From contig CAWFCQ010000005.1 of the NCBI GenBank assembly GCA_963814375.1, forward strand, positions 64,001-128,000: DNA of 64,000 bases, in the 5' to 3' direction. The notes beneath the pieces were generated by a model that was given only the letters and a program-made list of their open reading frames with translations, was not told the DNA's origin and did not search any database. This stretch comes from an uncultured Chloroflexia bacterium. Its GTDB lineage: Bacteria > Chloroflexota > Limnocylindria > QHBO01. Below are positions 4,773-56,028 of the stretch, piece by piece. A program made the translations under genes and the position numbers. Position 1 is the first letter of the stretch; the number at the start of each line of letters is the position of its first letter.

Positions 4773-4800
4773 TCCAGAGCCTCAGGGCTCGCACAGACGA

Positions 4801-4828
4801 TCAGGGGCGGCCGCATGGCCGCCCCTGA
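4801..4828 (+). terminator. Stem-loop after the SBP gene (mRNA stabiliser or partial terminator)
   Basis: TCAGGGGCGGCC-GCAT-GGCCGCCCCTGA perfect 12-bp stem. Confidence 0.6.
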
Positions 4829-4852
4829 GTTCATCCGGCAGCGGAGCGAACG

Positions 4853-5773
4853 ATGACCGAGACCACCATCCCGAGGGAGGCGACCCGGCCCGGCGGACCC
4901 GGCTTCCTGCGTGGCTGGAACTGGACGGCCAGCCTCTTCCTGGCGCCGGCGATCCTCCTGCTCGCCGTCCTCATGCTCTATCCGACGATCAGCACGATCA
5001 TCCTCTCCTTCGACGAGGGGCTCGACAACTACGTCCGCCTCTTCACTCGCGACCCGGCATTCCTCGACCTGAGCACGTTCCCACCGTCGGGCGCCCTCTT
5101 CAACAACCTGCTGTGGGTCGTCTTCTACACCGGCGGATGCCTCTTCTTCGGCCTGCTGGTGGCGGTGATGGCGACGCGCGTGCGCTACGAGGCCGGGATC
5201 AAGGCCATCGTCTTCATCCCACAGGCGATCGCCGCGACGGCGCTCGGCGTCATCTGGCGCTTCGTCCTCTTCCCCGACCCCGACACGGGTCTCGCCAATG
5301 CCGTTATCGGCGTGTTCGGGCTCGGGCCGATCGCCTGGCTCGGGGATGTCAACTGGGTGAATACGGCGCTTATCACCGTCGGCGTCTGGGGCTCGGTCGG
5401 CTTCGCGACCGTGATCCTGTCGGCCGCGCTGAAGGGGATCAGCACCGAGATCCTCGAGGCTGCGCGCGTTGACGGCGCGAAGGAGGGCCAGATCTTCTGG
5501 CGGATCATCGTGCCGATGCTGTCGCTGCCGATCAGCGTGGTGGCGGTGACGCTCATCATCAACGTCGTCAAGCTCTTCGACCTGATCTTCGTCATGACCC
5601 GCGGTGGGCCAGGGACGGCGAGCCGGGTCATTGCCTTCAGCATGTACCAGGAGGCGCTGCCGGCCAGGAACTTCGACTACGGCGCGACGATCGCCGTGGT
5701 CATGCTCCTCCTCCTCCTTCCGGTGATGTTCTACAACGTCCGCCGATTCCGCTCCGAGAGGGTGATCCAATGA
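4853..5773 (+). CDS. Sugar ABC transporter permease (MalF-like)
   Basis: Multiple TM helices, EAARVDGA motif. Confidence 0.95.
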   Translation: MTETTIPREATRPGGPGFLRGWNWTASLFLAPAILLLAVLMLYPTISTIILSFDEGLDNYVRLFTRDPAFLDLSTFPPSGALFNNLLWVVFYTGGCLFFGLLVAVMATRVRYEAGIKAIVFIPQAIAATALGVIWRFVLFPDPDTGLANAVIGVFGLGPIAWLGDVNWVNTALITVGVWGSVGFATVILSAALKGISTEILEAARVDGAKEGQIFWRIIVPMLSLPISVVAVTLIINVVKLFDLIFVMTRGGPGTASRVIAFSMYQEALPARNFDYGATIAVVMLLLLLPVMFYNVRRFRSERVIQ

Positions 5774-6669
5774 CCAGCGCGACACTGGGCGAGCCGCCGG
5801 TCCTGGCGCCGCCGCGCACCCCGGCTGAACGGATCATGCGCACCCTGAACAAGGCTCCGGTCCATATCGCGCTCGGGCTGATCGCCCTCATATGGCTGCT
5901 CCCGACGATCGGCCTGTTCGTCACCTCCTTCCGGCCCCGGAGCGAGATCCAGAACACGGGATGGTGGGAGACCTTCTTCGCAGGCGTCGGCGTCACGCTC
6001 GAGAATTACCAGCTCGTCCTCAACAACCCGCAGGCGGACATGCTGGGCGCGTTCATCAACAGCGTCCTGATCACCGTGCCGTCGACCGTGATCCCGGTGG
6101 TCATCGCGTCGTTCGCGGCCTATGCATTCGCATGGATCGACTTCCCGGGCCGCGACACCCTGTTCCTGGCGGTCATCGCGCTCCTCCTGATCCCGATCCA
6201 GATGGTGCTCATCCCGCTCAGCGCGCTGTACGGGACATTCGACATCTTCAGCACGTTCATCCCCGTCTGGCTGACGCACATCACGTTCGCCCTGCCGTTC
6301 GGGATCTTCCTGCTGCGGAACTTCTTCATCACCCTGCCGAGAGACCTCATCGAGGCGGCACGGATCGACGGCGCAACGAACTTCGGGATCTTCCGCAACG
6401 TGGTGGTCCCGCTCTCCGTGCCGGCGCTGGCGAGCTACGCGATCTTCCAGTTCCTGTGGGTCTGGAACGACCTACTGATCGCCCTCGTCTTCACGCGAGG
6501 CGAGCAGGCGCCGATGACGGTCCAGATCACTTCGCTGCTCGGCACCTACGCGTCGGAGTGGAATCTCCTATCCGCTGCGGCGTTCCTGGTGATGGCCGTC
6601 CCGCTCATCGTCTTCTTCAGCCTCCAGCGCTTCTTCGTTCAGGGCCTGCTGGCGGGCTCGGTCAAGTAG
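5770..6669 (+). CDS. Sugar ABC transporter permease (MalG-like)
   Basis: EAARIDGA, FLWVWND, LQRFFVQGL; ATGA overlap. Confidence 0.95.
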   Translation: MTSATLGEPPVLAPPRTPAERIMRTLNKAPVHIALGLIALIWLLPTIGLFVTSFRPRSEIQNTGWWETFFAGVGVTLENYQLVLNNPQADMLGAFINSVLITVPSTVIPVVIASFAAYAFAWIDFPGRDTLFLAVIALLLIPIQMVLIPLSALYGTFDIFSTFIPVWLTHITFALPFGIFLLRNFFITLPRDLIEAARIDGATNFGIFRNVVVPLSVPALASYAIFQFLWVWNDLLIALVFTRGEQAPMTVQITSLLGTYASEWNLLSAAAFLVMAVPLIVFFSLQRFFVQGLLAGSVK

Positions 6670-6773
6670 TCGCAACGGCGGGGTGCCCGATGAGTCGGGC
6701 GCCCCGCGCAGTCACCGGGGCTACGTCATTCGTCGTAGGCGACGCGCGACCGTGAGCCGCTAGGCTCAGGGCG

Positions 6774-9599: not shown

Positions 9600-9644
9600 G
9601 CGCGCGGTAGCATACGCGCCACCCTATCTCGCAAGGCAACGGAG

Positions 9645-10061
9645 GTGACCGTGGAGCTCGAGCAGCAACTCGCATCGGTGCCGCTCCTGGCAGGGCTCAA
9701 TGAGAAGGTCCGCCGCCGCCTGGCGGAGATCGGCAAGCGGCGCACCTACGCCGCCGATGAGACGATCGTGCGCGAGGGCTCGACCGGAACGGCCCTCTAC
9801 ATCGTTCTCCGCGGACGCGCGCGCGTCGAGCGCGAGGGCACGGCGATCGGCCAGCTGTCGGCCGGCGACTTCTTCGGCGAGCTCGCCCTGATCGAGGAGC
9901 ACCCGCGTTCGGCCACGGTCGTCGCCAACGAGGAGACCGATTGTCTCCTCTTCCCGGCGTGGGAGTTCACCGCGCTGCTCGAGGAGCATCCGGAGATCGC
10001 CGTGCCGATCATGCGCGAGCTGATCGGGCGACTGCACCGCCGCGAGCACCACGGAGCCTGA
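9645..10061 (+). CDS. Stand-alone cyclic-nucleotide-binding domain protein
   Basis: GDFFGELAL...PRSATV phosphate-binding cassette. Confidence 0.9.
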   Translation: MTVELEQQLASVPLLAGLNEKVRRRLAEIGKRRTYAADETIVREGSTGTALYIVLRGRARVEREGTAIGQLSAGDFFGELALIEEHPRSATVVANEETDCLLFPAWEFTALLEEHPEIAVPIMRELIGRLHRREHHGA

Positions 10062-10064
10062 CCC

Positions 10065-10724
10065 ATCGGCCTGCGCGTCGTCCTCGAGGTCGCGCCAAAG
10101 AAGGCCTTCGCCAGCGCGCTCGATTGGCCGGGGTGGTCCCGCGGTGCGAAGACGCCCGATGAGGCACTCGAGCAGCTCCTGAGGTATTCCTCCCGCTATC
10201 GCCGTGTCGCGCAGCGCGCGAAGCTCGCCTTCTCACCGCCAAAGACGGCGCGAGGCATCGAGATCGTGGAGCGCCTCAAGGGCAGCGCCGGAACCGAGTT
10301 CGGCGTGCCGAGCGCAGCCGCGTCAGCCGAGGACGACCCGATCTCCTCCGCCGACCTCAAGCGCCTCGTCGGCCTCCTGGAGGCCTCGTGGGCGACGTTC
10401 GACGCCGCGGCATCGAAGGCCAAGGGCGTTCAGCTGCGCCTCGGTCCCCGCGGCGGCGGCCGGCAGGTGCCGAAGATGATCGGTCACGTGCTCGAGGCGG
10501 AGGCCGCCTACGTGCACCAGATCGGGACGCAGAGCCCCGGCGCCACGGCGCCGATGAAGCAGATCCGCCAGGCAATGGTCGACGCCATCGGCGTGCTGGC
10601 GCGCGGTGAGGAGCTCCCGGAGCCGAACAAGGTGCGCCGCCCATGGTCGCCGCGCTACACGGTGCGCCGATCGGCGTGGCATGCCCTCGACCACGCCTGG
10701 GAGATCGAGGACCGCTCGACCTGA
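10065..10724 (+). CDS. Conserved protein with HicB-like N-terminus and DinB-like C-terminus
   Basis: Frame is open from 10062: LRVVLEVAPKKAFASALDWPGWSRGAKTPDEAL...HVLEAE...RRSAWHALDHAWEIED; only ATC/CTG available as a start. Confidence 0.7.
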   Translation: MGLRVVLEVAPKKAFASALDWPGWSRGAKTPDEALEQLLRYSSRYRRVAQRAKLAFSPPKTARGIEIVERLKGSAGTEFGVPSAAASAEDDPISSADLKRLVGLLEASWATFDAAASKAKGVQLRLGPRGGGRQVPKMIGHVLEAEAAYVHQIGTQSPGATAPMKQIRQAMVDAIGVLARGEELPEPNKVRRPWSPRYTVRRSAWHALDHAWEIEDRST

Positions 10725-10727
10725 GGC

Positions 10728-11519
10728 TCAGCCGAGCCGCGTCAGGATCGCCTCGCGCTCGAAGATCCAGTTGCCGGCGACCAGCGCGATCCCGATCAGG
10801 ATCGCGACGACGAGGTCGCCGAGGATGACCTGCTGCATTGTGAACGAAGCCTGTCCCGAGAAGAAGCCGGCCACGGCGATCGCGATGATCGGGATCACGA
10901 TGAACCCGCCGATCTGCTGCGCGGTGCGCGGGTCGTTGACGCGCGAGCTGACGATGATGCCGAGCAGGACGCTGAACATGCAGATGAGCGGGACGAGCGT
11001 CAGCATCGCCACGGTCCAGACGTCGTTGAAGATGAGCCGGGTCAGGATCGGATCGGCGATGGCGCCGTTCACGAACCCGTAGAGCAGGAAGACACCCCAG
11101 GTCGCGAGCACCGCCGGCGTGGCGGCCGAGATGGCCTTGCCGACCAGCAGCTCGCTCACCTCCATCGGCGTCGCCAGCTGGGGCTCGAGAGCCCGCGTCG
11201 TCTTCTCGCCGATGATCGACTGGGTGGCGATCGCCATCGGCACCATGGCCGGAATGAGGAGGAAGTAGGCCATGAAGTTGAGGACGATGAACCCCTGCGC
11301 CGCGAGCTTCGGGTCGAGGTTCGGGAACTGGGCGATGTAGCCCTCGATCTCGCTGAGCTGGTTGGGGTCGAGCTCGTTGGCCTGGATGAAGGCCACGATC
11401 CCGGTCGGGATGGCGGCGAACACGAGGGCGGGGAAGACGACGGCGCCGAGCAGCAGGCGGTTCGCGAGGAGGTCGGTCACCTCCTTCGTGAGCACCGCCC
11501 AGATGTACGACGGTCGCAT
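10728..11519 (-). CDS. ABC-2 type transporter permease
   Basis: IIGEKTTRALEPQLATP motif, about 6 TM. Confidence 0.9.
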   Translation of the reverse strand: MRPSYIWAVLTKEVTDLLANRLLLGAVVFPALVFAAIPTGIVAFIQANELDPNQLSEIEGYIAQFPNLDPKLAAQGFIVLNFMAYFLLIPAMVPMAIATQSIIGEKTTRALEPQLATPMEVSELLVGKAISAATPAVLATWGVFLLYGFVNGAIADPILTRLIFNDVWTVAMLTLVPLICMFSVLLGIIVSSRVNDPRTAQQIGGFIVIPIIAIAVAGFFSGQASFTMQQVILGDLVVAILIGIALVAGNWIFEREAILTRLG

Positions 11520-12466
11520 CAGGCCGCCACCCGCTCGTCTCGCGTCGGCGACTCGCCGACGAGGTCGAGATACACCTGCTCGAGCGTGACCGCCTCCTCC
11601 GCAACGCCCACGATCCGGGCTCCCGCACCGACCAGCGCGCGGACGAGCTCGGGGTTGTCACCGCGCGGATCGGTGACTTCCACGAAGAGGCTGCCGTCGA
11701 GCGCACGCGCAGCCTCGACGAAACGCAGGTCGCCGAGCAGATCGAGGAAGGACTCCGGGCGCCGCGCGCCGACGAGGTCGACGCGGACCGATGCCGTCCC
11801 GTTGCGGCGCCGCAGGCGCGCCGGGGTGTCGACCCGGAGGAGCGTGCCACGCATGATCCCCATCCGGTCGCAGAGCCGCTCGGCCTCATCGAGATTGTGC
11901 GTGCAGACCACGATCGAGCGGCCGGCGTCGCGAAGGGTGGCCACGAAGTCGCGGATCGTCTTCGCCGCCGATGGGTCGAGGGCGCTGGTCGGCTCGTCCA
12001 GGTACAGCACCTCGGGCTCGTGCAGGAGGGCGCGCGCGATCGCCACCTTCTGCCGCATCCCCTTGCTGAAGCCCCCCACCCGGCGGTCGCCCTCGTCGGA
12101 GAGGCCGACGATGCCGAGGTATCGGTCCACCGCCCGCCGCAGGGCCGCCCCGCGCAGCCCGTAGAGGCGCCCGTAGTAGCCGAGGTTCTGGCGTGCCGTC
12201 AGCTTGTCGTGGAGCCCGGGCGACTCGGTCAGCACGCCTGTGATGGAGCGGATCGCCTGCGAGTCCGGGCCGAGCTCACGGCCGTTGACCTGCGCGGTCC
12301 CTGTTGACGGCGCGATGAGCCCCGCCAGCATCCGGATCGTGGTCGTCTTGCCCGCGCCGTTCGGGCCGAGCAGCCCGAAGATCTCGCCGTCTCCGACCGT
12401 GAACGACAGGTCGTGAACGGCCGTCAGGTCTCTGAACTGCTTGCCGAGGCCGAGGGCGTTGATCAT
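11519..12466 (-). CDS. ABC-2 type transporter ATP-binding protein
   Basis: GPNGAGKTT, FSKGMRQK, LDEPT; start at MINALG (12466). Confidence 0.92.
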   Translation of the reverse strand: MINALGLGKQFRDLTAVHDLSFTVGDGEIFGLLGPNGAGKTTTIRMLAGLIAPSTGTAQVNGRELGPDSQAIRSITGVLTESPGLHDKLTARQNLGYYGRLYGLRGAALRRAVDRYLGIVGLSDEGDRRVGGFSKGMRQKVAIARALLHEPEVLYLDEPTSALDPSAAKTIRDFVATLRDAGRSIVVCTHNLDEAERLCDRMGIMRGTLLRVDTPARLRRRNGTASVRVDLVGARRPESFLDLLGDLRFVEAARALDGSLFVEVTDPRGDNPELVRALVGAGARIVGVAEEAVTLEQVYLDLVGESPTRDERVAA

Positions 12467-12538
12467 CGGTGCGGCGCATGCTAGCCGGGTTCCGGTGCGC
12501 CCGCCCACCGTACGATCATCGGGCTTACGATGCGTCGC

Positions 12539-13066
12539 ATGGAGGAACGAACGCTCGACAGCCGCCCCGCGTGGAGCGGGCGCGTGATCTCCGTCCGCGT
12601 CGACGAGGTCGAGCTGTCCGATGGGCGGCGCAGCGCGCGCGAGATCGTCGACCATCCCGGCGCCGTCGCGATCCTCGCCTGGGACGGCGAGCGGCTGGCC
12701 ATGGTGCGCCAGTGGCGTCATGCCACCGGCCAGGAGCTGCTCGAGGTCCCCGCCGGCACCCTCGAGCCCGACGAGGCGCCCGACGCGACCGCTCGACGCG
12801 AGCTGTCCGAGGAGGTCGGCCTGGCGGCCGCGGGCTGGGAGGCCGGCCCGACCTTCTACACGGCACCCGGCTTCTGCACCGAGCTCATGCACCTCTACCT
12901 CGCGACCGACCTGACCGAGGCGCTGGCCGATGGCGACGAGGACGAGGAGCTCGAGGCGAGCTGGATGACGCTGGATGACGCGCTGGCGGCGACCGACGAT
13001 GGCCGCATCGTCGACGCCAAGACGATGGTCGCACTCGCCTGGCTGGCGCGACGCCTGGGGCGCTGA
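12539..13066 (+). CDS. NUDIX hydrolase (ADP-ribose pyrophosphatase, NudF-like)
   Basis: EVPAGTLE...ARRELSEEVG Nudix box, HPGAV, FYTAPGF, DAKT. Confidence 0.9.
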   Translation: MEERTLDSRPAWSGRVISVRVDEVELSDGRRSAREIVDHPGAVAILAWDGERLAMVRQWRHATGQELLEVPAGTLEPDEAPDATARRELSEEVGLAAAGWEAGPTFYTAPGFCTELMHLYLATDLTEALADGDEDEELEASWMTLDDALAATDDGRIVDAKTMVALAWLARRLGR

Positions 13067-42702: not shown

Positions 42703-44605
42703 TTAGCCCGCGGACTCCACTGCGAATTGCTCCTGGTAGAGCTTGGCGTAGAGGCCCTCCTGGCGAATGAGCTCGGCGTGCGTGCCGCGCTCGACGATGC
42801 GCCCGCGCGCCATCACCAGGATCTGGTCGGCGCGCAGGATCGTGCTGAGCCGATGCGCGATGGCGATCGTCGTGCGGCCCTGCTCGAGTCGCGCCAGGGC
42901 GGCCTGGATGAGCCGTTCGCTCACGGTGTCGAGGGCGGAGGTGGCCTCGTCGAGAATGAGGATCCGCGGGTCCTTGAGCAGGACGCGCGCGATGGCCACC
43001 CGCTGCTTCTCGCCGCCGGAGAGCTTGTAGCCGCGCTCGCCGACCACGGTGTCGTACGCCTCGGGCAGCTCGAGGATCCGATCGTGGATCGCGGCGGCGG
43101 TCGCGGCAGCCTCGATCTCCTCCATCGTCGCCTCGGGCTTCGCGTAGCGCAGGTTGGACAGCACCGTGTCATGGAAGAGGTAGGTCTCCTGGGTGACGAA
43201 GCCGATCTCCCGCCCCAGCGACTGGAGCCTGATGCCGCGCACATCGATCCCGTCGATCAGGATCGACCCCGCGTCGACGTCGTAGAGGCGCGGGATGAGG
43301 TAGGTCGAGGTCGTCTTTCCGCCGCCCGATGGCCCCACCAGCGCCACCAGCTGGCCCGGTGCGGCGGTGTAGGTGATGTCCGCGAGGGCGAAGGGCATGA
43401 CGCGGCTCGGCATCGCGCGGCCGTCGGCCTCGGCCTCGACCATCTCCCGGGTCGCGTCGAGCTGCCCGGTCGACCACCGGGTAGTGGAAGGAGACGCCAT
43501 CGAAGCGAACCTCGCCGCGCATGGTCTCGGGGGTCAGCGTGACGGCGTCGGGCGCATCGACGATCTCGTGGTCCATCTCGAGGTACTCGAAGATGCGGTC
43601 GAAGAGCGCGAGGGCGCCCTGGATCTCGACCTGGACGTTGAGCAGCTGTCCGAGCGGGAAGAAGAGGCGCGACTGAAGGGTGGTGAACGCCACGATCGTC
43701 CCGATCGTAACGTCCGCCTCGCCGCCGATGATGAAGCTGCCCGCCAGCAGGTAGACGAAGGCCGGCATGATGCTGAAGAAGGTGCCGATGAGGGCGAAGA
43801 ACCAGCGCCCGATCATCTGGCCGCGCACCTGGAGGTCGCCGAGGCGCTGCGACTCGGCGCGGAATCGCTCGATCGACGCCTCCTGCTGACCGAACGTCTT
43901 GCTGAGGAGGATGCCCGAGACGCTGAGCGACTCCTCGGTGATCGCGCTCATCTCGGCCATCGATCGCTGGGTCAGAGTCGAGACCTCGCGCCGAACCTTC
44001 CCGACGCGGTAGGTGATGTACGCGAAGATCGGGAGCAGGCCGAGGCTCAGGATCGTGAGGCGCCAGTCGAGGATCCACATCGCGATGACGGTCGTGGCGA
44101 CCGTGGCGAAGTTCGAGAGGATGGAGGCGGCCGTATCGGTCACCACCGCCTGGACACCGCCGACGTCGTTGGCGATGCGGCTCTGGATCTCGCCGGTGCG
44201 CGTCTCGGTGAAGAAGCGCAGCGGCATCCACTGCAGGTGGCGATAGAGGGCGAGCCGCAGATCGTTCATGACCCGCTGGCCGACGACGTTCGACAGGTAC
44301 GACTGCCACACCCCGAGGGCGCTGGTGATGATCGGCAGGACGATCATGAGCCCGCACTGGATCCAGAGCAGGCTGAGGTCCTGCGGGCCGGTCAGGTTGT
44401 CGATGACCAGCTTGAGCAGGATCGGGTTGACCACGCCGATGCTGACGGTCACCAGGATCAGGACCGCGATGAAGGCGAGCCTCGCGCGGTAGGGCCTGAA
44501 GAAGCCGGCGATCCGCCGCAGCGTCGGCCCTTCGCTCCCCGGCCGTCGGCTCAGGTCCGGCTCCGGGCCGCCACCCCACATGCCACCGCCGCCGCGCCGG
44601 GTCAT
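42703..44605 (-). CDS. ABC exporter, fused permease + ATPase (frameshift near 43480)
   Basis: [15 protein letters not shown]; [25 protein letters not shown]. Confidence 0.9.
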
Positions 44606-45841: not shown

Positions 45842-48622
45842 CTACTCGCCGAACATCGTCAGCTGCTCGCCACCGCGCTCGATCAGCGGATCCAGGCCGA
45901 GGACCGGCTCCAGCCACTCCATCCGGGCACCTGGGCGCGCGGCGAGGGTGGCGAGGTGCTGCCACTTCAGCACGTGCCAGTTCTGCCGGTCCATCTCGTC
46001 GCGCAGCCACGGAGAGCGCTGAATCTTCAGGCGCAGCAGCTCGGAGCGCTCGGCGGGGATGACGAGGAACCGTGCCTGCTGGTCGCCGACGGGAATCTTC
46101 CGGCCCCGAGTGAGGACGGCGTCGCCGACCATCGCGGTCCACTCCACCTCGAACAGGAACGCCAGCTTGCCGCGCACGTACCACAGCGCGTCCACCGCTC
46201 CCAGGGCCTCGACCGGCGCCCGGATCACCAGGGGCAGGTAGACGCGGCGCTCGTCGTCGTTGAGGCGGCTCGAGAGCCGCTCTCCATCGACCACGCGGTC
46301 GTGCTCACGAGCCGCGATCCAGGACCGCAGGCCGAGCCGATGTCCGTAGTCGGCGAGTGTGGCCAGAACGCGGGCGTGGTCCTCGGTTCGTCGCGCGAGG
46401 TCGTCATCGGTCGCGAGCGAGCCGAGCTCACCCGGCGCGACATAGGCGGCCAGGCACGCTCGCACCAGCTCTTCGTCAGGAGCCGCGAGGCCGGGGAAGA
46501 GCCGGAAGATGCGGTCGAAGAACCCGGCCTCGTCGATTCGTCCGGCCGTCGCGAGCACGGACCAGGTCGCCCACTCCACCCGGTCCGCCAGCGGCTGCTC
46601 GGCCACCTCGGGGTTGCGGAGCCACCACAGCGGCCTCGCTTCGTCACCGATGCGGACGAGCGAGGGATGGTCGTCGCGCCACAGCTCCTCGCGCACCAGC
46701 GAGCCCAGCATGTGCGGCCCGCTGCCCTCGATGCGATCCTCGGGAGCGTCGTCGTCGCCAGCCCGCGTCACGGCGATACGCCGCAGCAGGCCGGAGCGAC
46801 CGAGCTCCGCGACGATGGCCGCGACCATGCGCGTCAGCCCCGCCGGCTCGCCGCGGTCGCGGAGCAGTGCCGAGGCGGCGCCATCGATGCCGGCCGCCAG
46901 CTCGGGATAGGTCAGGTGCCCACCCTCGACACCGAGACGCAGGGGGCTCGGCGTCACCGCACGCCGAAGGCGATCCTCGGCCGAGGGCTTGCGCAGGTGG
47001 AGCACGACGCCATCGCCGGTGCGGCCCGACTCGCGGTGAATGACGTCGACCAGCTCCAGGCCCGCGGCAGCACCGGCAACCGCGGTGGCGAGAAGCCGGT
47101 CCGGATCGGCATCCTCGATGAGAAGCGTGCACCAGCCGCCCGGCTTGAGGGCGCCGGCCGCAGAGCTGAGCCCGTGCCTGAGGGCAGTGGCCTCGGCCCC
47201 GGATGCCTGCCCGCCGCTGCCGAAGATGGGCTCCAGCCGCAGGGTCTCGGCCGCCTCCCTGCCGAGGATCCAGGACGTTGCCAGGTACTCGTACGACAGC
47301 TCGTCGATCGATGGGCTGGCGGGAGGCGCCGCCACGACGAGATCGACGCCCTCGGCCGGAACGTACTGTCCGACCACTGCGGGCCGTGACCTCAGCCACA
47401 GAACGTTCGCCGCACCCATCCCACCCAGCTCACCGTAGTCCGCGGCAAAGCGCGCCTCCTGGCGGTCGCGAGGCAGGGCGGCGATGGTCGCCCGCACGTC
47501 CGCGAACGAGGATTCGAAGGCGCGCCACACGTTGACCTCGCGCTGATGGCGGCTCGCCGGCTGTCGGACGTGGCCGCCCGAGATCCTCAGCGACGCGACG
47601 CGGCCCGGATAGCCGTTGAGCCGGCTTGCGGGGAGCAGGCACGCCGCGAGGGCCAGGCGCATCGCCGCGACCGTCCCGGCGTCGCGGAGCTCCGACTCGA
47701 TCTTCGAGCCGATGGCGTGGAGCGCGTAGAGGTTGCGCGCGGTGTACAGGTCGAGGAGCTCCTCGACGAGGTCATCGCGGCCGTCGAGCACCGGAAATCG
47801 TGCCCGGAGCTCGAGGTACTGCGGGCTGTGGCGCACGCCGCCGGCGGCCGCAGCGACCGGCACCGGATCGGGGCGCACGGTCGATGCGAAGCGCGGGCCA
47901 TCGCCCAGCGGCGGATCGGTGACAGCCGGCGGTGGCGATGGCGGCCCGCCCGCCTCGCCGAATGGCTCGTCGTCCGCCCCGGGCAGCGGCGGGTCGGGCT
48001 CGGTCAGGCCGACGGGCGCCGGGGGAAGGTCGTCGGCAGCCGCATCGGGAACGCTGGGTCCGTCCCCGAGCTCTCCGCGCTCGATCCCGAGCTTGGCGAG
48101 GTCGACTTCGTCCACCGGGGCGGCACGCTCCTCCGGGCCGCCGAGCGACGCGTCGCAGCTCGCGCAGCGGTAGAGCTTGCGTCCCGGAGCGTCGCCGTCC
48201 CGGGGCCAGATGAACTGGTCGGCAACGACGGGACGCCGGCAGGTCCCGCAGCGCGTCGCGTACAGCTCCTCGATGTGCTGACGCAGCGGCACGTCGACGC
48301 GGCGCGAGCTGGCGAGCTGGGCAAACGCCGCATCGAGCACCGCCGGATCCGGGGCAGACAGGAAACAGATCGCCGCGAGCTGGTTGAAGGGGCTCGGATC
48401 GGCAGCCACGGCCCGCATGCCATGGCCGATCGCGCGCCGCGCCGTCCAGCCGGTGCCCGCCCAGGGATCGAGGACGGTGTCGCCGGAGGACGCGAAGGCG
48501 CTGAGCTCGGCGTCGAGCAGGTTGTCGGCCGGTGGCGGCCGATAGCGCTCGAGAAGGGCGAGGCCGGGGCGCCGTCGCGGGAGGACGACGTGGTCGAGTC
48601 CTGTCCGCTCCGGCTCGCTCAT
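45842..48622 (-). CDS. DNA methyltransferase-like protein (degenerate catalytic motif) with Zn ribbon and C-terminal PD-(D/E)XK-like domain
   Basis: VLDPWAGTG, CGTC..CASC, YTARNLYAL, EVNVW, VDLVVAAPPA, LKPGG, VDALW...FEVEWT, terminal EQLTMF. Confidence 0.75.
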   Translation of the reverse strand: MSEPERTGLDHVVLPRRRPGLALLERYRPPPADNLLDAELSAFASSGDTVLDPWAGTGWTARRAIGHGMRAVAADPSPFNQLAAICFLSAPDPAVLDAAFAQLASSRRVDVPLRQHIEELYATRCGTCRRPVVADQFIWPRDGDAPGRKLYRCASCDASLGGPEERAAPVDEVDLAKLGIERGELGDGPSVPDAAADDLPPAPVGLTEPDPPLPGADDEPFGEAGGPPSPPPAVTDPPLGDGPRFASTVRPDPVPVAAAAGGVRHSPQYLELRARFPVLDGRDDLVEELLDLYTARNLYALHAIGSKIESELRDAGTVAAMRLALAACLLPASRLNGYPGRVASLRISGGHVRQPASRHQREVNVWRAFESSFADVRATIAALPRDRQEARFAADYGELGGMGAANVLWLRSRPAVVGQYVPAEGVDLVVAAPPASPSIDELSYEYLATSWILGREAAETLRLEPIFGSGGQASGAEATALRHGLSSAAGALKPGGWCTLLIEDADPDRLLATAVAGAAAGLELVDVIHRESGRTGDGVVLHLRKPSAEDRLRRAVTPSPLRLGVEGGHLTYPELAAGIDGAASALLRDRGEPAGLTRMVAAIVAELGRSGLLRRIAVTRAGDDDAPEDRIEGSGPHMLGSLVREELWRDDHPSLVRIGDEARPLWWLRNPEVAEQPLADRVEWATWSVLATAGRIDEAGFFDRIFRLFPGLAAPDEELVRACLAAYVAPGELGSLATDDDLARRTEDHARVLATLADYGHRLGLRSWIAAREHDRVVDGERLSSRLNDDERRVYLPLVIRAPVEALGAVDALWYVRGKLAFLFEVEWTAMVGDAVLTRGRKIPVGDQQARFLVIPAERSELLRLKIQRSPWLRDEMDRQNWHVLKWQHLATLAARPGARMEWLEPVLGLDPLIERGGEQLTMFGE

Positions 48623-48628
48623 CGGTCG

Positions 48629-49478
48629 CTACGTCTCTTCTACCAGCTCCTCTTCGAGCTCGGGCTCACCGGAGTACTCCGGAAGGGTGGTGTCGAGCTC
48701 CTCGACCTCCTCCGAGTCCTCGTCGGCCTCCTCCACCTCGTCCTCGTCATCGTAGCGAAGCGCGCTGCCCTTGATGTACGGTCTGACGCCACCGCCTCCC
48801 TGCGTGACCGTCGGGAACGAGACCTTTCCGAAGTTCGCGGGAGCGGTGAAGACCTCGCGGATGATGATCGTGACGTCGCCGCCCGCCTCGTGGATGGTGG
48901 TGAGCGCCGCCTCGTATCGGTTCCCGCTGGTGATCAACTTGAGGAGACGAGCGGCGATTCGTGGCTCGACGCTTCCGATGGCGGACTTGCCGACACGAGC
49001 CACCAGCTCGTCGCCGCTGGCATCGAGATCGACCGCATCGCCGGGCGACAGCGGCGCGAGGACGCGCGGGGCGGCCAGGTTGATGAGACGGGCGCGCCCG
49101 GTCTTGCCCATCTCCTCGATGAAGAGGGTCGCCGGCGCCTTGTCGGTCCGGCCCTTGCCGTCGTACGGCGGGACGGTCGGCGGAGCTCAGGACACGCAGG
49201 CGTTCGACATTGCGCTGCGCGATCCGGTTCGTCGCATCCCGTTCCAGGGCCTGCTCGTAGGCATCGAGCGCCTCGCCGTGCCGATTCAGCTCGGCGAGGG
49301 CCTTGCCGAGGCGGTTGTACCCATCGATGTCGGGGCCGAGCTCGAGCAGGGCGCGGTTGGTGTCGACCGCGGCTTCCCACTCACCGCGCGTCGCCTGCGC
49401 GATCGCTGTCTCGCTCAGCTGGCGGCGTTGTCGGGTCGTGGCGTCGGCTTCTCCAAGTGCCATGGGCGGTGAAGGCAT
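48629..49478 (-). CDS. TPR + HIRAN-like domain protein with acidic tail (frameshift near 49180)
   Basis: YNRLGKAL TPR; FIEEMGKT, LSPGDAVDL, IGSVEPRIAARLLKLITSGNRYEA; D/E-rich C-terminus. Confidence 0.75.
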
Positions 49479-49553: not shown

Positions 49554-50351
49554 CGCGGGGCTGCCAGTCCCCCGCCCATCGCCGACGCGAGCAGGCCGAC
49601 GACCAGCCCGAGGATCATCAGCGACCCGTACTCGGTCGCGACCGCTCGACCCGACGCATCACCGCGAAGGGCGTCGACCGCGCCCGGCCCACGTGTAGAA
49701 GGCGAGCGCCATGAGGGCGGCCATCACGGCGCTCGAAATGTCGAGCAGCACGGATGCCACCCCGATCTGGATGATGACGAGGAGGTGCAGCACCGCCTGG
49801 CCGAGCGCCTGGACCCCCATCGTCCCTCGCGCCTCTGCCGAGCGAATGGCAACCGGCAGCGTGAGGCCGGCCACGAGGATGAACGGCGTGGGCCACACGC
49901 GGGCCCCGAAGAGGCCGAGGATGCCGGCTGCGGCGGTGAAGACGATCGACGTCAGCAACAGCTCGCCGATGGTGCGTCCGCCCGTACCCCGCTCGATGCG
50001 CAGCTCCAGGTAGGTCACCGCCCACAGCAGGACCGCCACGATCGGGATCAGCAGGAGGCTCAGGCCGCCTGGGATGAGACGCCCGAAGAGGGTCGCGGCG
50101 ATGCCGGCCACCGAAGGCATCGCGTATCGCGCCAGGCCGAGCTCGGAGCGCGCGGGCCCGATCACGTACACGGCGGCCAGGCCACCCAGCACCAGCTGGG
50201 CGGCGATGACCACCGCGAGCACGACCGGATCCGCGAACCAGCCGACCGCGGCGACCAGCGCCTGGAGCACGGCGATCAGGACCGCGGCGGGCCGGTCGAT
50301 GCGGCGTAGGACGGAGAGGCGCCGTCGGTCGGCCAGGACCCTCCCGATCAC
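49550..50351 (-). CDS. Polytopic membrane protein (DUF5656-like; frameshift near 49685)
   Basis: GTG overlaps polX stop; about 8 hydrophobic segments; removing one base extends it to ...VATEYGSLMILGLVVGLL; family call tentative. Confidence 0.65.
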
Positions 50352-52099
50352 GCGAGCACCTCGAGCAGCGCCGTAGCCGAGCGCGTGGCGAGGAGCTGGT
50401 CGGGCTCGAGCCAGGCACGGCGCGCGAGGTCGACGGCGTAGCGCTGCTGGTCGAGCTCCTCGGTCCGGTGCGCGTCCGAGGCGAGCGTCAGGCGCGCCCC
50501 GGCGCGCGCCGCCGCCCGCGCGAGCGGGTCGTCGAGGTCCAGCCTCGGACTGCCGTTGATCTCGAGCGCGGTGTTGCATCGCGCCGCGGCCTCGAAGACG
50601 CGTGGCCAGTCGATCGGGAGGGGGTCGCGGGTGTTGACGATACGCCCGGTCGGATGGGCAAGAACGTCGACGTGCGGATGCTCGACCGCGGCGAGCGCGC
50701 GGCGGGTGAGCTGCTCGGACGACTGGCCGCGACCGGTGTGGATGCTTGCGATGACGACCTCGAAGCGCTCGAGGAGCTCGTCCGGATAGTCGAGGGTGGC
50801 ATCCGCCCTGATCTCGAGCTCGGTGCCGTGGAGCACACGGAATGGGGCGAGCTCCGCGTTGACCCGCGCGATCTCGGCACGTTGCTCCTCGACGCGGTCG
50901 GGGAGGAGGCCGCGGGCCACCCCGAGCGAGGGTGAATGGTCGGTCAGGACGATGTACTCGTGGCCCCGATCCCGCGCCGCCCGCGCCATGACCTCGATGG
51001 AGTCGACCCCGTCGGTCCAGTTCGAGTGGGTATGGGTGTCGCCGCGAACGTCCCGGTGGGTGACGAGGTTGGGAAGCCGCCCATCCCTGGCGGCCTCGAT
51101 CTCGCCTGCCGCCTCGCGGAGCTCCGGCGGGATCCACGGGAGCCCGAGGCGCTCGTAGACGTCGGCCTCCTCGGCGTCGAGCAGCAGGTCACCGGTCTCG
51201 ATGACCTTGAAGCCCTTCTCCGAGAGCGACCAGCCACGGTCGAGGGCCATCCCGCGCAGCGCGATGTTGTGATCCGCGTTCCCCGTGAAGTGGACGAGAT
51301 GCGAGCCCCAGGTCTCCGGCGGGCAGACCATGAGGTCGACGCGCGGTCCGTCGGCGAGCAGGATGCTCGTCTTGTCGGTCCCGGCGGCCACGACCTTGTC
51401 GACCTCGCGCAGCCGGTCCAGCGCCGCGATCACCGCCGGTGGGTCATCGACGGCAGCGAGCAGGTCGATGTCACCGATCGTCGTGCGCCGCCTCCGCAGC
51501 GACCCGGCCCGCTCGATGCGGCTCACGCCCCGTGCTTCCCTCAGCTGGTCGATCAGCCCGGCGACGAGCTCATCGGCGTCGTGGAGCAGCATCCGGTCGT
51601 AAACGCGCTCCATCCGCGCGATGCCGTCGATGATGTTCGCTTCCGTTCGTTCGGAGAGGCCCTTCACGTGCCGCAGGCGGCCCTCCTCGGCGGCCGCTCG
51701 TAGCGCTTCGACGGAGTCGATGCCGAGCTCGGTGTGGAGCAGCCGGACCGTCTTGGGGCCGACGCCAGAGATCCGAAGGATCTGGAGGAGGCCGTCTGGC
51801 ACCTGCGCGCGCAGCCGCTCGTAATATTCGAGGCGTCCGGTTTCCGCCAGCTCCGCGAGCTTGGCGGTCAGTGCCTCGCCGGCGCCGGGGATCTTCGGTG
51901 GCTGGCCGCGACGGTAGAGCGCAGCGACGTCGTCGGGATAGCGCTCAACCGCATCGGCGACGCGGCGGTAGGCGACGGCCTTGTACACCACCTCGCCGAG
52001 GATCTCGAGCATGTCGCCGATCTCGTTGAAGATCCGCGCCAGCTCCGCGTTGCTGATGACGGTGCCGTCGGTGCGCGACACGCTCCTGGGTCGAGGCAT
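50348..52099 (-). CDS. polX: DNA polymerase X / PHP 3'-5' exonuclease
   Basis: GVGPK HhH, GSLRRRRTTIGDIDLL, RVDL, HFTG; PHP motifs HTHS..DG, TDHS, HPTGR, SDAH. Confidence 0.95.
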   Translation of the reverse strand: MPRPRSVSRTDGTVISNAELARIFNEIGDMLEILGEVVYKAVAYRRVADAVERYPDDVAALYRRGQPPKIPGAGEALTAKLAELAETGRLEYYERLRAQVPDGLLQILRISGVGPKTVRLLHTELGIDSVEALRAAAEEGRLRHVKGLSERTEANIIDGIARMERVYDRMLLHDADELVAGLIDQLREARGVSRIERAGSLRRRRTTIGDIDLLAAVDDPPAVIAALDRLREVDKVVAAGTDKTSILLADGPRVDLMVCPPETWGSHLVHFTGNADHNIALRGMALDRGWSLSEKGFKVIETGDLLLDAEEADVYERLGLPWIPPELREAAGEIEAARDGRLPNLVTHRDVRGDTHTHSNWTDGVDSIEVMARAARDRGHEYIVLTDHSPSLGVARGLLPDRVEEQRAEIARVNAELAPFRVLHGTELEIRADATLDYPDELLERFEVVIASIHTGRGQSSEQLTRRALAAVEHPHVDVLAHPTGRIVNTRDPLPIDWPRVFEAAARCNTALEINGSPRLDLDDPLARAAARAGARLTLASDAHRTEELDQQRYAVDLARRAWLEPDQLLATRSATALLEVLA

Positions 52100-52523: not shown

Positions 52524-53171
52524 ATGACCGATCCGCACGAAGGCCGGCCCGAGCCCGCCCATCCGTCCGAGCTGTTCGTCGATTTCGCGAACCGCTCGCG
52601 GCTGTCCAGCTCGGAGCCTGCCGATCCCGCCCGGGAGCTCACGCGCCTGGCCGCGTGGCTGGCCGAGCAGTCACTGGTGACCGATGGAGCCTCGCGCGCT
52701 CGACTGAAGCCTGAGCTCCCCGCCTTCCGGGACCTGCGGGAGCTCATCCAGGACGTGGCGCAGCGGCTCGATGACGGCGCTCCCCCCACCCGCGCGCAGG
52801 TGGCCGCCATCAACGAGGTCATGCGCGAGGGCCTGCACTACCACGCGCTGCGGGCCGACGGTGCCGGCTCGCGCTTCACGATGACGCCGGTGGGCGACGA
52901 GCTCGACCAGGCGCGGTCGGCAATCGCCGGGTCGCTGGCGCACTATCTCGCCGAGCACGACCGTCGACGGCTGCGGGTGTGCGCCGACGGGACGTGCCGC
53001 TGGCTCTTCGTCGACCGCTCCCCCGGCGGGCGTCGCCGCTGGTGCGACATGCGCACCTGTGGCAATCGCGCCAAGGTCGCACGCCATCGCGCGCGGCAGA
53101 CCGCTGTAACTTCTCCTCAGCGGGACCGCGCCCGAAGGGTCAGGCGCCGATCGGGTGCCAGACCGTCTTGA
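52524..53171 (+). CDS. ABATE/CGNR zinc-finger putative transcriptional regulator
   Basis: VDFAN; C-x4-C-x-WLFVDRS...RRWCDMRTCGNRAKVARHR. Confidence 0.93.
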   Translation: MTDPHEGRPEPAHPSELFVDFANRSRLSSSEPADPARELTRLAAWLAEQSLVTDGASRARLKPELPAFRDLRELIQDVAQRLDDGAPPTRAQVAAINEVMREGLHYHALRADGAGSRFTMTPVGDELDQARSAIAGSLAHYLAEHDRRRLRVCADGTCRWLFVDRSPGGRRRWCDMRTCGNRAKVARHRARQTAVTSPQRDRARRVRRRSGARPS

Positions 53172-54129
53172 CCTCGACGAACTCGCCGATGAAGTACGGC
53201 GACTGCGCCTCGGGCGCGCGCCAGTCGTAGCGATCGAGCCCGGCGGCCGGCGGGCGCACGAAGCGCTTCACGTTCTCGACCGCGACCTCCTCGAGGGTGG
53301 CTGCCTCGTCCGGTGAGGCACCGAACGCGTCCAGCCCGTTGACGTCCATGTGGCCCGCCAGGTGCCCGACCAGCTCCTGCCGCAGCCCGGTCACCAGGTT
53401 GACGACGCCACCCGGCACGTCGGACGTCGCGAGGACTTCGGTCAGGGTCACCGCCGGGAGAGGCCGCCGCTCCGAAGCGATGACGACCGCGGCATTGCCG
53501 CTGACGACGGCCGGAGCGAGCCGGCTCACCAGGCCGAGCAGCGACGATGACTCGGGCGCGATGACTCCAACCACGCCGGTCGGCTCAGGGACGCTGAAGT
53601 TGAAATAGCTGCCGGACACCGGGTTGACCGTTCCGATCAGCTGGGTGTACTTGTCGGCCCACCCGGCGTACCACACCCAACGATCGATGGCCGCGTCGAC
53701 ATCCTTGGCTGCACGCGGCCGCGAGATGCCCTCGGCGGCGATCACCTCGGCCACGAACTGGTCGCGCCGGCCCTCCATCAGCTCCGCGATGCGGTACAGG
53801 ATCTGGCTGCGGTTGTACGCGGTCTTCCCGGCCCAGCCCGGCTGTGCCTTGCGAGCGGCCCGCACCGCCTCGCGGATGTCCTTGCGGGTTCCGCGCGACG
53901 CGTTGGCGAGCAGCTGGCCCTTCGCCCCGAAGATCTCGTACGCACGCCCGGACTCGGTGCGAGGGAAAGCGCCGCCGATGTAGAGCTTGTACGTCTTGCG
54001 CACCCCAATGCGTTCCCCGCGACCAGCCGAGCCGTTCGTCGTCGCCAGGGGCTGCGCCGACCGTTGATTGAGCACCGACGCTCCCTGAAGCCTGCCTCGC
54101 TTCGTCGCTGCTGGACGTCTTGCGGCCAT
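53140..54129 (-). CDS. Truncated aldehyde dehydrogenase-like protein (NAD-binding part only)
   Basis: KTYKLYIGGAFPRTESGR, WYAGWADK, EPTGVVG, KTVWHP; no ELGGK or catalytic Cys. Confidence 0.85.
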   Translation of the reverse strand: MAARRPAATKRGRLQGASVLNQRSAQPLATTNGSAGRGERIGVRKTYKLYIGGAFPRTESGRAYEIFGAKGQLLANASRGTRKDIREAVRAARKAQPGWAGKTAYNRSQILYRIAELMEGRRDQFVAEVIAAEGISRPRAAKDVDAAIDRWVWYAGWADKYTQLIGTVNPVSGSYFNFSVPEPTGVVGVIAPESSSLLGLVSRLAPAVVSGNAAVVIASERRPLPAVTLTEVLATSDVPGGVVNLVTGLRQELVGHLAGHMDVNGLDAFGASPDEAATLEEVAVENVKRFVRPPAAGLDRYDWRAPEAQSPYFIGEFVEVKTVWHPIGA

Positions 54130-54482
54130 CAGGAGGAACCCTCCTCGCCGTATTGCTTCGTATCGGATCGTTCGACGAGGAGTGCGTAGGCCGGTCCGGC
54201 ATCGGCGACCGGCCGATGGCGCTGACCCCGCGGGACGAGGAAGATCTCGCCCGGCGACAGATGCGCCGCCGCGCGGCCCTCGAGCTCGATCCGAAAGGCG
54301 CCGCGCCAGCAGAGGAACAGCTCGTCCTCGGCATGGTGGTGCCAGGCAAACTCGCCCTCGAGGCGTGCGAGCCGCAGTGTGGCTTCGTTCACCACCGCCA
54401 GGTCGATCGGCTTCCAGGGCTCCGTCAGCGCATCAGCCACTGCGTCGAGCGCGATCTCGCTGCCGGTATCCGGGACGATCAT
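54129..54482 (-). CDS. Cupin domain protein
   Basis: GEFAWHHHAEDELF...VPRGQRHRP; ATG at 54482 overlaps ALDH stop. Confidence 0.88.
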   Translation of the reverse strand: MIVPDTGSEIALDAVADALTEPWKPIDLAVVNEATLRLARLEGEFAWHHHAEDELFLCWRGAFRIELEGRAAAHLSPGEIFLVPRGQRHRPVADAGPAYALLVERSDTKQYGEEGSS

Positions 54483-56002
54483 CGGCCGCTTGATCCGTTG
54501 CCCGACAGGTCGAGATAGGCACCGAGGCCGTGGATGCCGCCCTCGCGGCCGTAGCCGGACTCCTTGTAGCCGCCGAACGGGCTGGTCGGGTCGAAGCGGT
54601 TGAAGGTGTTGGCCCACACCACTCCGGCGCGCATGGCCGAGACCATCTTGAAGATGCGGCTGCCCTTCTCGGTCCATACCCCGGCGGAGAGGCCGTAGGG
54701 CGTGTTGTTCGCCTTCTCGATCGCCTCGTCCGGCGTGCGGAAGGTGAGCACCGAGAGGACCGGCCCGAAGATCTCCTCCTGCGCGATCCGGTGGCTCTGG
54801 CTCACGCCGGTGAAGAGGGTGGGGCGGAAGAAGAAGCCCTTGTCGGGCAGCACACAGTCGGGCTGGAAGATCTCGGCGCCCTCGGCGATGCCCGACTCGA
54901 CCAGCTCCTGCACCTTCGCGAGCTGGCCGGCCGAGTTGATCGCCCCGACATCGGTGTTCTTGTCGAGCGGGTCGCCGACGCGCAGCGTGCCGAGGCGTGC
55001 CTTGAGCTTGTCGAGCAGTGGCTCGTACACCGACTCCTGCACGAAGAGGCGCGAGCCGGCGCAGCACACCTCGCCCTGGTTGAAGTAGATGCCGTTGATG
55101 ATGCCCTCGATGGCCTGGTCGAGCGGCGCGTCGTCGAAGACGATGTTCGCCGCCTTGCCGCCGAGCTCGAGCGTAACCTTCTTGCCCGTCCCCGCGAGGG
55201 CGCGCGCGATCATCTTGCCCACGGCCGTCGAGCCGGTGAACGCGACCTTGGCCACGTCGGGATGGGTGACGAGCTCCATCCCGATCTCGCCTGGCCCGGT
55301 GATGATGTTGACCACGCCCGGCGGCAGGTCGGCCTGGCGCACCACATCGGCGAAGAGGTAGGCGGTCAGCGGCGTTGTCGAGGCCGGCTTGAGGACGACG
55401 GTGTTGCCGGCGGCCAGTGCGGGAGCGATCTTCCAGGCCAGCATGAGCAGCGGGAAGTTCCACGGGATGACCTGGGCCGCGACGCCGAGGGAGCGGGGCT
55501 TGCGGTTCGGGAATGCGTACTCGAGCTTGTCCGCCCAGCCGGCGTAGTAGAAGAAGTGCGCCGCGGCGAGCGGCACGTCGACGTCACGCGACTCCTTGAT
55601 CGGCTTGCCGGAGTTCATCGACTCGACCACCGCGAACTCGCGGCTGCGCTCCTGGAGGATGCGCGCGATGCGGTAGAGGTACTTGGCGCGCTCTCGGCCC
55701 GGCAGCTTCGCCCACTCGGACCGATGCGCCTCGCGGGCGGCGGCGACCGCACGGTTGACGTCCGCCTTCGAGGCGTGCGCGACCTTGGCCAGTGGCTCCT
55801 CCGTCGCCGGGTTGATGACGGTGAACGTCTTGCGCGGCTTCGACGGGCGGAACTCGTTGCCGATGAAGAGGCCGTACTCGGGCTCGAGGTGGATGTGATC
55901 GGTCGCCTCGGGCGCCGGGGCGTACTCCCAGGGATGGTCTCCGGCGGCCAGGCCCCACGAGGCCGGGGCGGGGCGGCTCTCGGGCTTCTTGGTGAGCGTC
56001 AT
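54479..56002 (-). CDS. Aldehyde dehydrogenase
   Basis: PWNFP, FTGST, LELGGK, NQGEVCCAG, EEIFGP, PFGGYKESG. Confidence 0.95.
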   Translation of the reverse strand: MTLTKKPESRPAPASWGLAAGDHPWEYAPAPEATDHIHLEPEYGLFIGNEFRPSKPRKTFTVINPATEEPLAKVAHASKADVNRAVAAAREAHRSEWAKLPGRERAKYLYRIARILQERSREFAVVESMNSGKPIKESRDVDVPLAAAHFFYYAGWADKLEYAFPNRKPRSLGVAAQVIPWNFPLLMLAWKIAPALAAGNTVVLKPASTTPLTAYLFADVVRQADLPPGVVNIITGPGEIGMELVTHPDVAKVAFTGSTAVGKMIARALAGTGKKVTLELGGKAANIVFDDAPLDQAIEGIINGIYFNQGEVCCAGSRLFVQESVYEPLLDKLKARLGTLRVGDPLDKNTDVGAINSAGQLAKVQELVESGIAEGAEIFQPDCVLPDKGFFFRPTLFTGVSQSHRIAQEEIFGPVLSVLTFRTPDEAIEKANNTPYGLSAGVWTEKGSRIFKMVSAMRAGVVWANTFNRFDPTSPFGGYKESGYGREGGIHGLGAYLDLSGNGSSGR

Positions 56003-56028
56003 CGCGCTCGATTATCGCACCCGCCGCC

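Follow-up and report, generated by a model that had tools for sequence, protein, structure and literature searches.

The 64,000-nucleotide stretch of contig CAWFCQ010000005.1 analyzed here (the window), from an uncultured Chloroflexota bacterium of the class Limnocylindria, carries on its minus strand, at positions 45842..48622, an open reading frame (ORF) for a protein of 926 amino acids. This protein is best read as a domesticated, clamp-recruited DNA-binding nuclease, the substrate and role of which we infer. In evolutionary terms, it may have descended vertically from a family of clamp-tethered single-chain methyltransferase-nucleases, have lost methylation and now serve replication-coupled DNA maintenance; this is the most plausible account of the gene and is held tentatively. 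The gene is kept in every sampled genome of the class, and the protein therefore probably has a part in maintaining DNA at the replication fork, where sliding-clamp binders define events. A first-pass annotation, made from the sequence alone, had described a restriction-modification (R-M)-derived protein that rides the clamp, reads or flips bases with a dead methyltransferase fold and nicks DNA, and this overall interpretation is partly supported.

Sequence and predicted structure of the protein

The ORF aligns end to end with its homologues at 73-83% identity, has the codon-position GC pattern of a real gene and has a GC content of 0.727 versus 0.701 for the window. The positions of its motifs were checked by translation of the coordinates, and its parts are as follows.

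45842..48622, minus strand: the ORF, 926 amino acids plus stop, intact frame, with full-length homologues
48449..48472, minus strand: motif I, the S-adenosylmethionine (SAM) loop LDPWAGTG, residues 51-58 (translation)
48113..48259, minus strand: four-Cys zinc ribbon, C125-x2-C128 ... C153-x2-C156, inserted in the methyltransferase fold
47837..48070, minus strand: disordered Pro/acidic insertion, about residues 185-262 (from model confidence, pLDDT)
47408..47836, minus strand: helical, target-recognition-like region with the invariant R296 and E362-x-N364-x-W366
47318..47335, minus strand: degenerate motif IV site VAAPPA, residues 430-435 (alignment)
46412..46915, minus strand: two tandem winged-helix domains, residues 570-737 (structural match)
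45908..46411, minus strand: restriction-nuclease-like domain (PF27126 NmeDI_C) with D811, E825 and E827 (precomputed annotation)
45845..45907, minus strand: flexible C-terminal tail PVLGLDPLIERGGEQLTMFGE, with the clamp-type motif QLTMF at nucleotides 45851-45865

The SAM loop, the CxxC..CxxC ribbon, the Pro/acidic insertion and the terminal EQLTMFGE are all present where the first-pass annotation had placed them. This is also the case for the two blocks of the proposed nuclease site, VDALW (residues 810-814) and FEVEWT (824-829), which are separated by nine residues and not by the eight that had been counted.

The DPPY loop is essential in amino-methyltransferases. In the protein, VAAPPA occupies the same alignment columns as FTDPPY of its intact relatives, as had been anticipated. 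In a set of 120 close homologues (mean column identity 0.78), about 80% of the proteins have Ala at the position of the D of DPPY, the Y position is conserved in only about 30%, and the position preceding the D equivalent is less than 10% conserved. Judged from these motifs, the protein should be unable to methylate by the known mechanism. The SAM loop and the nuclease residues are kept in its own lineage: conservation in the same 120 homologues is at least 80-90% at each position of motif I, at the motif II aspartate D75, and at D811, E825 and E827. The last three align with the FEVENT block of the intact relatives, where D696, E710 and E712 are invariant. The conservation of these residues while the DPPY site drifts argues for selection on them in this clade. 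The Pro/acidic insertion is the least conserved stretch.

Family searches with the protein are largely silent. Pfam and NCBIfam scans gave no significant family, and the cut-off of PF01555 was missed (12.7 bits against 26.7, over residues 40-69 only). A sequence search of the PDB with the protein reached a best E of 0.065, and a profile of its C-terminal part gave no meaningful match. The PADLOC profile MTase_II (PDLC03312) matches residues 286-526 with an E of 6.5e-9. PF27126.1 is a precomputed Pfam annotation on the protein and on many of its homologues and is named NmeDI_C in the protein atlas; this accession was in no paper found by the literature search.

The full-length AlphaFold2 model, built with 56 relatives, has a mean predicted local distance difference test (pLDDT) of 87.1 and a predicted template modelling score of 0.86. 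It shows, in this order, a split methyltransferase fold, a pair of winged helices, a domain resembling restriction nucleases and a flexible tail. Residues 8-546 form a class-I methyltransferase fold that is split by the zinc ribbon, the disordered insert (pLDDT below 50 at residues 194-197 and 202-258) and the helical region. This part best matches Trm11 (6zxv_B, Z 19.6, root-mean-square deviation (rmsd) 3.0, 177 aligned residues; model residues 8-546) and TrmN (3tma, Z 19.5, rmsd 2.2, 170 aligned). A separate model of residues 570-926 has a pLDDT of 87.9. Its winged helices resemble, by VIA-align, an 80S ribosome-bound chain (6zmo/7xnx/6zvh), ORC/Cdc6 and cullins at Z 8.0-9.3, and one of them resembles the DNA-binding domain of DpnI at Z 7.3. 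Residues 738-917 resemble restriction nucleases, with the small subunit of R.BspD6I (2p14_A, Z 7.9, rmsd 4.1, 145 aligned) as the best match, followed by N.BspD6I (2ewf_A, Z 7.0) and EcoT38I (Z 6.6). Weak Foldseek matches of the protein are to BsaXI, M.BseCI, M.TaqI and EcoKI M. In the tail, the pLDDT drops to 78 and then to 50 in the last two model blocks.

Intact and degenerate relatives

The representative library holds 1236 relatives of the protein at an E of at most 0.001 and 711 at an E of at most 1e-10. These fall into two groups, intact enzymes of about 820 amino acids and a degenerate, Chloroflexota-type group to which the protein belongs. The intact relatives carry PF01555 at 73-77 bits (cut-off 26.7) together with PF27126 NmeDI_C. 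In a set of 121 of them, the DPFxGSG-type motif I and DPPY are each present in 120, and FEVE[NH][TS] is present in 119. Their profile matches M.RsrI (4.6e-9), CcrM (9.5e-9) and M.MboIIA (1.4e-8). Three ribbon cysteines (C114, C117, C144) and the E, N and W of E-x-N-x-W are on their list of invariant residues. They are scarce, with 271 confirmed matches in a scan of 185,579 species genomes. At ten of their loci the neighbors are mostly housekeeping genes without a constant partner; one integrase, one transposase and one ParE gene were seen.

The degenerate group was counted over 50 representatives, from which P0248, P0258 and P0266, which look frame-shifted, and three intact rows were left out. 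A DPPY-like loop is present in none of the 50, and the GxG of motif I is kept in only two, the protein and its nearest cluster. All four cysteines, R296, E362 and W366 are present in 50/50, N364 in 49/50, and Q920 of the tail in 48/50. In a FastTree phylogeny, a single branch of length 1.11 (SH support 100) parts the 50 degenerate proteins from 27 intact ones; the tree is unrooted and therefore allows, but does not prove, a single origin of the degenerate group. The taxonomic range of this group is given by the phylum sample described below and by Atlas labels. The shared domains and the well-supported branch bear out the R-M-type descent that had been suggested from motifs.

The clamp-type tail

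The 926-residue protein ends in EQLTMFGE, in which QLTMF occupies residues 920-924. The last 16 residues of each homologue were scored with a loose pattern for bacterial clamp motifs, with internal 16-residue windows of the same proteins as the control. The pattern is present in 120/120 close homologues (108 by a strict version) and in 45/56 diverse ones, and the internal background is about none of 6656 windows in the close homologues (fraction 0.000) and at most 0.2% overall, so that the motif exceeds chance by a wide margin. Throughout the tail given above, conservation in the close homologues is at least 80-90% per position, so the terminal motif noticed in the first-pass annotation is a conserved one. 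The DinB homologue of the same genome carries QLTLF.

Two consensus motifs are relevant here: the PIP box (PCNA-interacting peptide) for PCNA and the QL[SD]LF type for the bacterial beta-clamp. The PIP-box spacing Qxx[LIMV]xx[FYW] ends 86/121 of the intact relatives. Tails were compared with hosts at 80 loci with organism-naming titles, two of which were dropped because the match lay in the N-terminal part only. The archaeal intact relatives have a PIP-type tail in 45/58 cases and a bacterial-type tail in 0/58, and the bacterial ones have a QLxLF-type tail in 10/20, a PIP type in 3/20 and neither in 9/20, these rows being kin and not independent. The motif spacing switches with the clamp type of the host, a pattern that is difficult to account for other than by clamp binding. 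The clamp motif was not acquired upon domestication, as the intact relatives already have it, in the form of a PIP box in archaea or of QLxLF in bacteria. The archaeal intact relatives include many from DPANN, Bathyarchaeia and methanogens. Archaeal-type tails are present on two bacterial-labelled records, from Desulfobacteria (L096) and Stahlbacteria (L094), which may represent gene transfer or mis-binning.

Clamp riding was also approached by folding residues 885-926 with the DnaN of the same genome (L033:1489-2619, minus strand; alignment of 25). The predicted complex scored 0.51, compared with 0.11 for the best of three controls. The score mark that was used is reached by 58/80 solved complexes and 2/110 mismatched pairs, and at scores of 0.60 or below it is reached by only 7 of the 80 solved complexes and by both of the passing mismatches. 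At least 56% of the contacts recur between runs, and the pLDDT of the partner is 43 or more. Clamp-peptide complexes have already been solved, so this pass may reflect known structures that the predictor has learned. The prediction lends weak support to binding.

A second dnaN-like gene, outside the window (L034, G000:C5:280207-283413), looks frame-shifted and is split over two overlapping frames, with ORFs at 1213-2070 and 1469-2533 on the minus strand; the normal dnaN adjoins recF on contig 3.

Distribution and mismatch repair genes

A match to the protein is present in 58 of the 201 genomes sampled from the phylum. These tallies include G038, G145 and G173, which are flagged as unpublished, and no claim depends on those three. 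The filled families are f1 (12/12), f2 (7/7), f9 (13/13) and f21 (3/3). Identity to the protein is 74-77% in the genus, 67-70% in the family and about 30% in other classes. With a profile of the C-terminal part, a single locus was found in 31/31 genomes of the class. The presence in all of these genomes, together with the conserved synteny described below, fits the housekeeping-like, non-patchy character that had been expected of the gene.

The class has no convincing known mismatch repair system in profile searches of 31 genomes. MutS_I and the DNA_mis_repair domain of MutL are each present in 0/31, and the controls were found in 11/14 model genomes. NucS_C gave partial matches only, which cover at most 66 of 124 profile positions and three of which are just above the cut-off. 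MutS_V is weak in the class, mostly at an E of about 1e-32 to 1e-35 (1e-18 and 1e-26 in two genomes), versus about 1e-80 elsewhere. One Limnocylindria family has been reported to have lost base-excision glycosylases (PMC13212565); the available part of that report does not mention the gene described here.

Gene neighborhood

Upstream of the gene, on the same strand, lie three genes.

48629..49478, minus strand: gene for a tetratricopeptide repeat (TPR) protein with an acidic tail, ending 6 bases before the ATG of the 926-residue ORF
49659..50345, minus strand: small membrane protein gene (hydrophobic ORF), between the PolX and TPR genes
50348..52099, minus strand: PolX (DNA polymerase beta-like plus PHP), with Pfam DNA_pol_B_thumb, HHH_8, HHH_5 and PHP

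The TPR gene is upstream on the same strand in 11/11 loci of families f1 and f2 and in 8/8 loci of other families of the class, and the two genes are putatively co-transcribed. PolX is upstream in 11/11 f1/f2 loci. The small membrane protein gene is kept in 6/6 f1 loci and matches no Pfam family. In the six f1 loci, the gene order is PolX, membrane protein, TPR protein, the 926-residue protein, and then CsoR-like, PIG-L and ATP-binding cassette (ABC) exporter genes. Among the 14 neighboring ORFs scanned there is no R-M partner, no second methyltransferase and no mobility gene, as the first-pass annotation had stated for R-M partners and mobility genes. At the two loci examined from the other families of the class, the TPR gene and the gene for the protein are about 2 kb apart, and an ORF of about 590 amino acids lies between them. 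This ORF belongs to no Pfam family and has no likeness to the 555-amino-acid ORF of the window.

In the assembly, the TPR gene lies in two frames with an offset of 1, from 49478 to about 49190 and then 49111-48629; in relatives it is a single ORF of 286 amino acids (L014:7139-7999). This may be an assembly indel or a real frameshift. The source genome is an 8-contig assembly with 89% completeness. Sequencing runs contain at most 0.12 of the sampled words in any run, and the contigs obtained from them derive from relatives. In the metatranscriptome run X15, short contigs lie on the upstream gene, on its junction with the gene for the protein (48564-48667) and on two small parts of the latter; this library may contain DNA, and its contigs cannot show expression. 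None of the contigs listed bridges the apparent TPR frameshift (about 49130-49210).

Outside the class, in the stretch 4428-10328 (minus strand) of L028 (G020:C16), the distant homologue of G020 shares 4 bases with the beginning of a DEAD/MZB (MrfA-type) helicase gene; an RNase_H_2 plus TPR gene (MrfB-like) comes next. The homologue of G002 (L029, G002:C42) adjoins, at 10681-12762 (minus strand), a 693-amino-acid DUF1156 plus N6_N4_Mtase protein, a different methylase of the zinc-ribbon type. A TPR protein beside the G012 homologue was considered as the TPR partner of the class and rejected, as it belongs to a different family.

Proposed function and alternative explanations

In the proposed mechanism, the tail would dock in the cleft of DnaN, by which the protein would reach clamps left on newly replicated or repaired DNA. 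Contact with DNA would be made by the ribbon, by the region that once recognized the target and by the pair of winged helices, and the retained SAM loop may still bind the cofactor as a signal. The NmeDI_C-type nuclease domain would then cut or nick. The activities suggested in the first-pass annotation, nicking and the reading or flipping of bases with the inactive methyltransferase fold, are putative. The TPR protein, and in two families also PolX, would be partners in maintenance.

Several observations weigh against a clamp-recruited maintenance nuclease. The resemblance to nuclease folds is middling (Z 7.9, rmsd 4.1), and Foldseek gave no match of the C-terminal model at an E of at most 0.001 (best E 0.064). 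The D..ExE residues are kept in only 17/50 degenerate representatives, and all 13 genomes of family f9 keep the gene and its tail without them. The function common to the whole degenerate group therefore cannot be cutting, and the residues of the PD-(D/E)XK-like site proposed earlier are kept in the clade of the protein but not throughout the group. PolX is present in 0/8 stretches from other families of the class, so its linkage is confined to two families. Outside the class, the neighbors are unrelated housekeeping genes, with G020 as the exception, and there the homologue beside the MrfA-like helicase lacks the tail motif. The weakness of the DnaN complex prediction also counts here. In addition, the intact relatives already carry the clamp motif, so that the motif alone is no argument for repair over defense. 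The loss of nuclease residues in much of the group could indicate that the protein is a non-catalytic, clamp-bound DNA-binding factor, a scaffold or regulator of replication or chromosome handling in which the SAM loop and nuclease residues are relics. The degenerate group has the ribbon, R296, E-x-N-x-W and the clamp-type tail in common, and neither enzyme domain has invariant catalytic residues. The partner gene codes for a TPR protein, a type of module for protein interaction. This is a less probable explanation that deserves attention; the strong conservation of the SAM loop, D75, D811, E825 and E827 over 120 homologues while the DPPY site drifts speaks against it. A role in defense is unlikely. 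The protein would then still be a restriction-type, for example modification-dependent, nuclease that recognizes a modified base through the dead pocket or the winged helices and reaches replicating phage DNA by way of the clamp. Its nearest intact relatives look like single-chain R-M enzymes and are rare, its winged helix resembles the DpnI DNA-binding domain, one distant homologue stands beside a DUF1156/N6_N4 methylase, and R.NmeDI is, by the available part of its description, a proven restriction enzyme (PMC2095814). Against such a role are the single locus with conserved synteny throughout the class, a divergence that tracks taxonomy, neighborhoods scanned without defense or mobile genes, and the many members that keep the gene though the nuclease residues are lost. 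A restriction role of the protein is therefore considered unlikely.

A sharper form of the maintenance reading, in which the protein is the nuclease of mismatch or lesion repair that replaces MutS-MutL or NucS in the class, is doubtful. The absence of MutS_I and MutL domains and the partial NucS_C matches, in genomes that all carry the protein, favor it, as does a feature shared with NucS/EndoMS, a nuclease fold joined to a clamp motif at the terminus, the type of which matches the clamp of the host. However, MutS_V is strong (E at most 1e-77) in 23/23 carriers outside the class, which also weighs on the broader maintenance reading, and family f12 has only weak MutS_V and yet has the protein in 0/4 genomes. 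A general anticorrelation with MutS was rejected on these two grounds, so that the phyletic pattern against mutS, mutL and nucS, to which the first-pass annotation had pointed, is seen within the class and not beyond it. Moreover, no mismatch-binding element was identified in the protein. It is very improbable that the protein still methylates by means of an unorthodox catalytic loop, or that its terminal motif does not bind the clamp. The clade does retain motif I and the Asp of motif II, and the DnaN complex prediction is weak, but the D and Y of DPPY are replaced and poorly conserved even in close homologues, and the switch of the tail motif with the host clamp type would be left without a ready explanation. 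The reading as a methylation-dead, clamp-recruited nuclease of DNA maintenance is preferred.

In its most far-reaching form, which is speculative and rather unlikely, the whole family would consist of undescribed clamp-riding enzymes (on PCNA or DnaN), and the methylation-dead form of the class would cut the strand in a third type of replication-coupled repair of mismatches or lesions, together with the TPR protein and PolX. If the tail truly follows the host clamp, from the PIP box to QLxLF, the family would be a new class of clamp clients in both prokaryotic domains. Its dead-methyltransferase branch would represent an enzyme that a phylum of soil and freshwater has retained through a divergence equivalent to hundreds of millions of years. 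Replication fidelity in a class without detected mismatch repair is directly testable with one recombinant protein and a clamp.

Comparison with known systems

No description of a clamp-motif methyltransferase-nuclease fusion was found in a literature search that did not extend to subscription journals and supplementary files. The closest relatives are the intact, uncharacterized N6_N4_Mtase plus NmeDI_C proteins of about 820 amino acids (P0243, P0252, P0261) from DPANN and other archaea and from scattered bacteria. They share with the protein the domain order, the zinc ribbon, E-x-N-x-W, the winged helices, the D..ExE block and the C-terminal clamp-type motif. Unlike the protein, they keep HK[YFW]WARKP, DPFxGSG and DPPY and pass the Pfam cut-off, and they are rare and scattered, whereas the clade of the protein is class-wide.

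Type IIG/IIC fused enzymes (BsaXI) and beta-class amino-methyltransferases (M.RsrI, CcrM, M.MboIIA) are linked to the protein by its weak Foldseek matches and by the profile matches of its intact relatives, respectively. The protein differs from them in the motif order I ... IV with a large insert and in the absence of the catalytic loop, and to our knowledge no clamp motif is known in these enzymes. Eukaryotic DNMT1 is a maintenance methyltransferase that is brought to the fork by a PIP box binding PCNA. The recruitment of the archaeal intact relatives through a PIP box appears to be alike. DNMT1 is, however, an unrelated C5 methyltransferase without a nuclease domain, and the protein should be unable to methylate.

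R.NmeDI, from which PF27126, annotated on the C-terminal part of the protein, takes its name, is a characterized Type II restriction endonuclease of Neisseria meningitidis; in the available part of its description, it is, unlike the protein, a stand-alone nuclease of 351 amino acids with a separate methyltransferase gene and without a methyltransferase fold (PMC2095814). NucS/EndoMS is described, in the parts available of the two reports, as a clamp-activated mismatch endonuclease (PMC6159515, PMC8228993), and by this description it resembles the protein in combining a restriction-nuclease-type fold and a C-terminal clamp motif in lineages without MutS-MutL. The protein has no sequence relation to NucS/EndoMS, is much larger and has another architecture; the NucS families (PF01939 and its partner) were not found in a Pfam scan of the protein at an E of up to 1.

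Other observations in the window

The ABC exporter downstream is encoded in overlapping pieces in different frames, the membrane part at 43169-44605 and the ATPase part at 42703-43500 (minus strand). Relatives have the two parts in succession in a single frame, and the break is thus another apparent frameshift of the window, besides that of the TPR gene. An ORF of 329 amino acids at 53140-54129 (minus strand) matches only positions 15-232 of a 461-position aldehyde dehydrogenase profile. It adjoins a full-length aldehyde dehydrogenase gene at 54479-56011 (minus strand) and may be a truncated copy.

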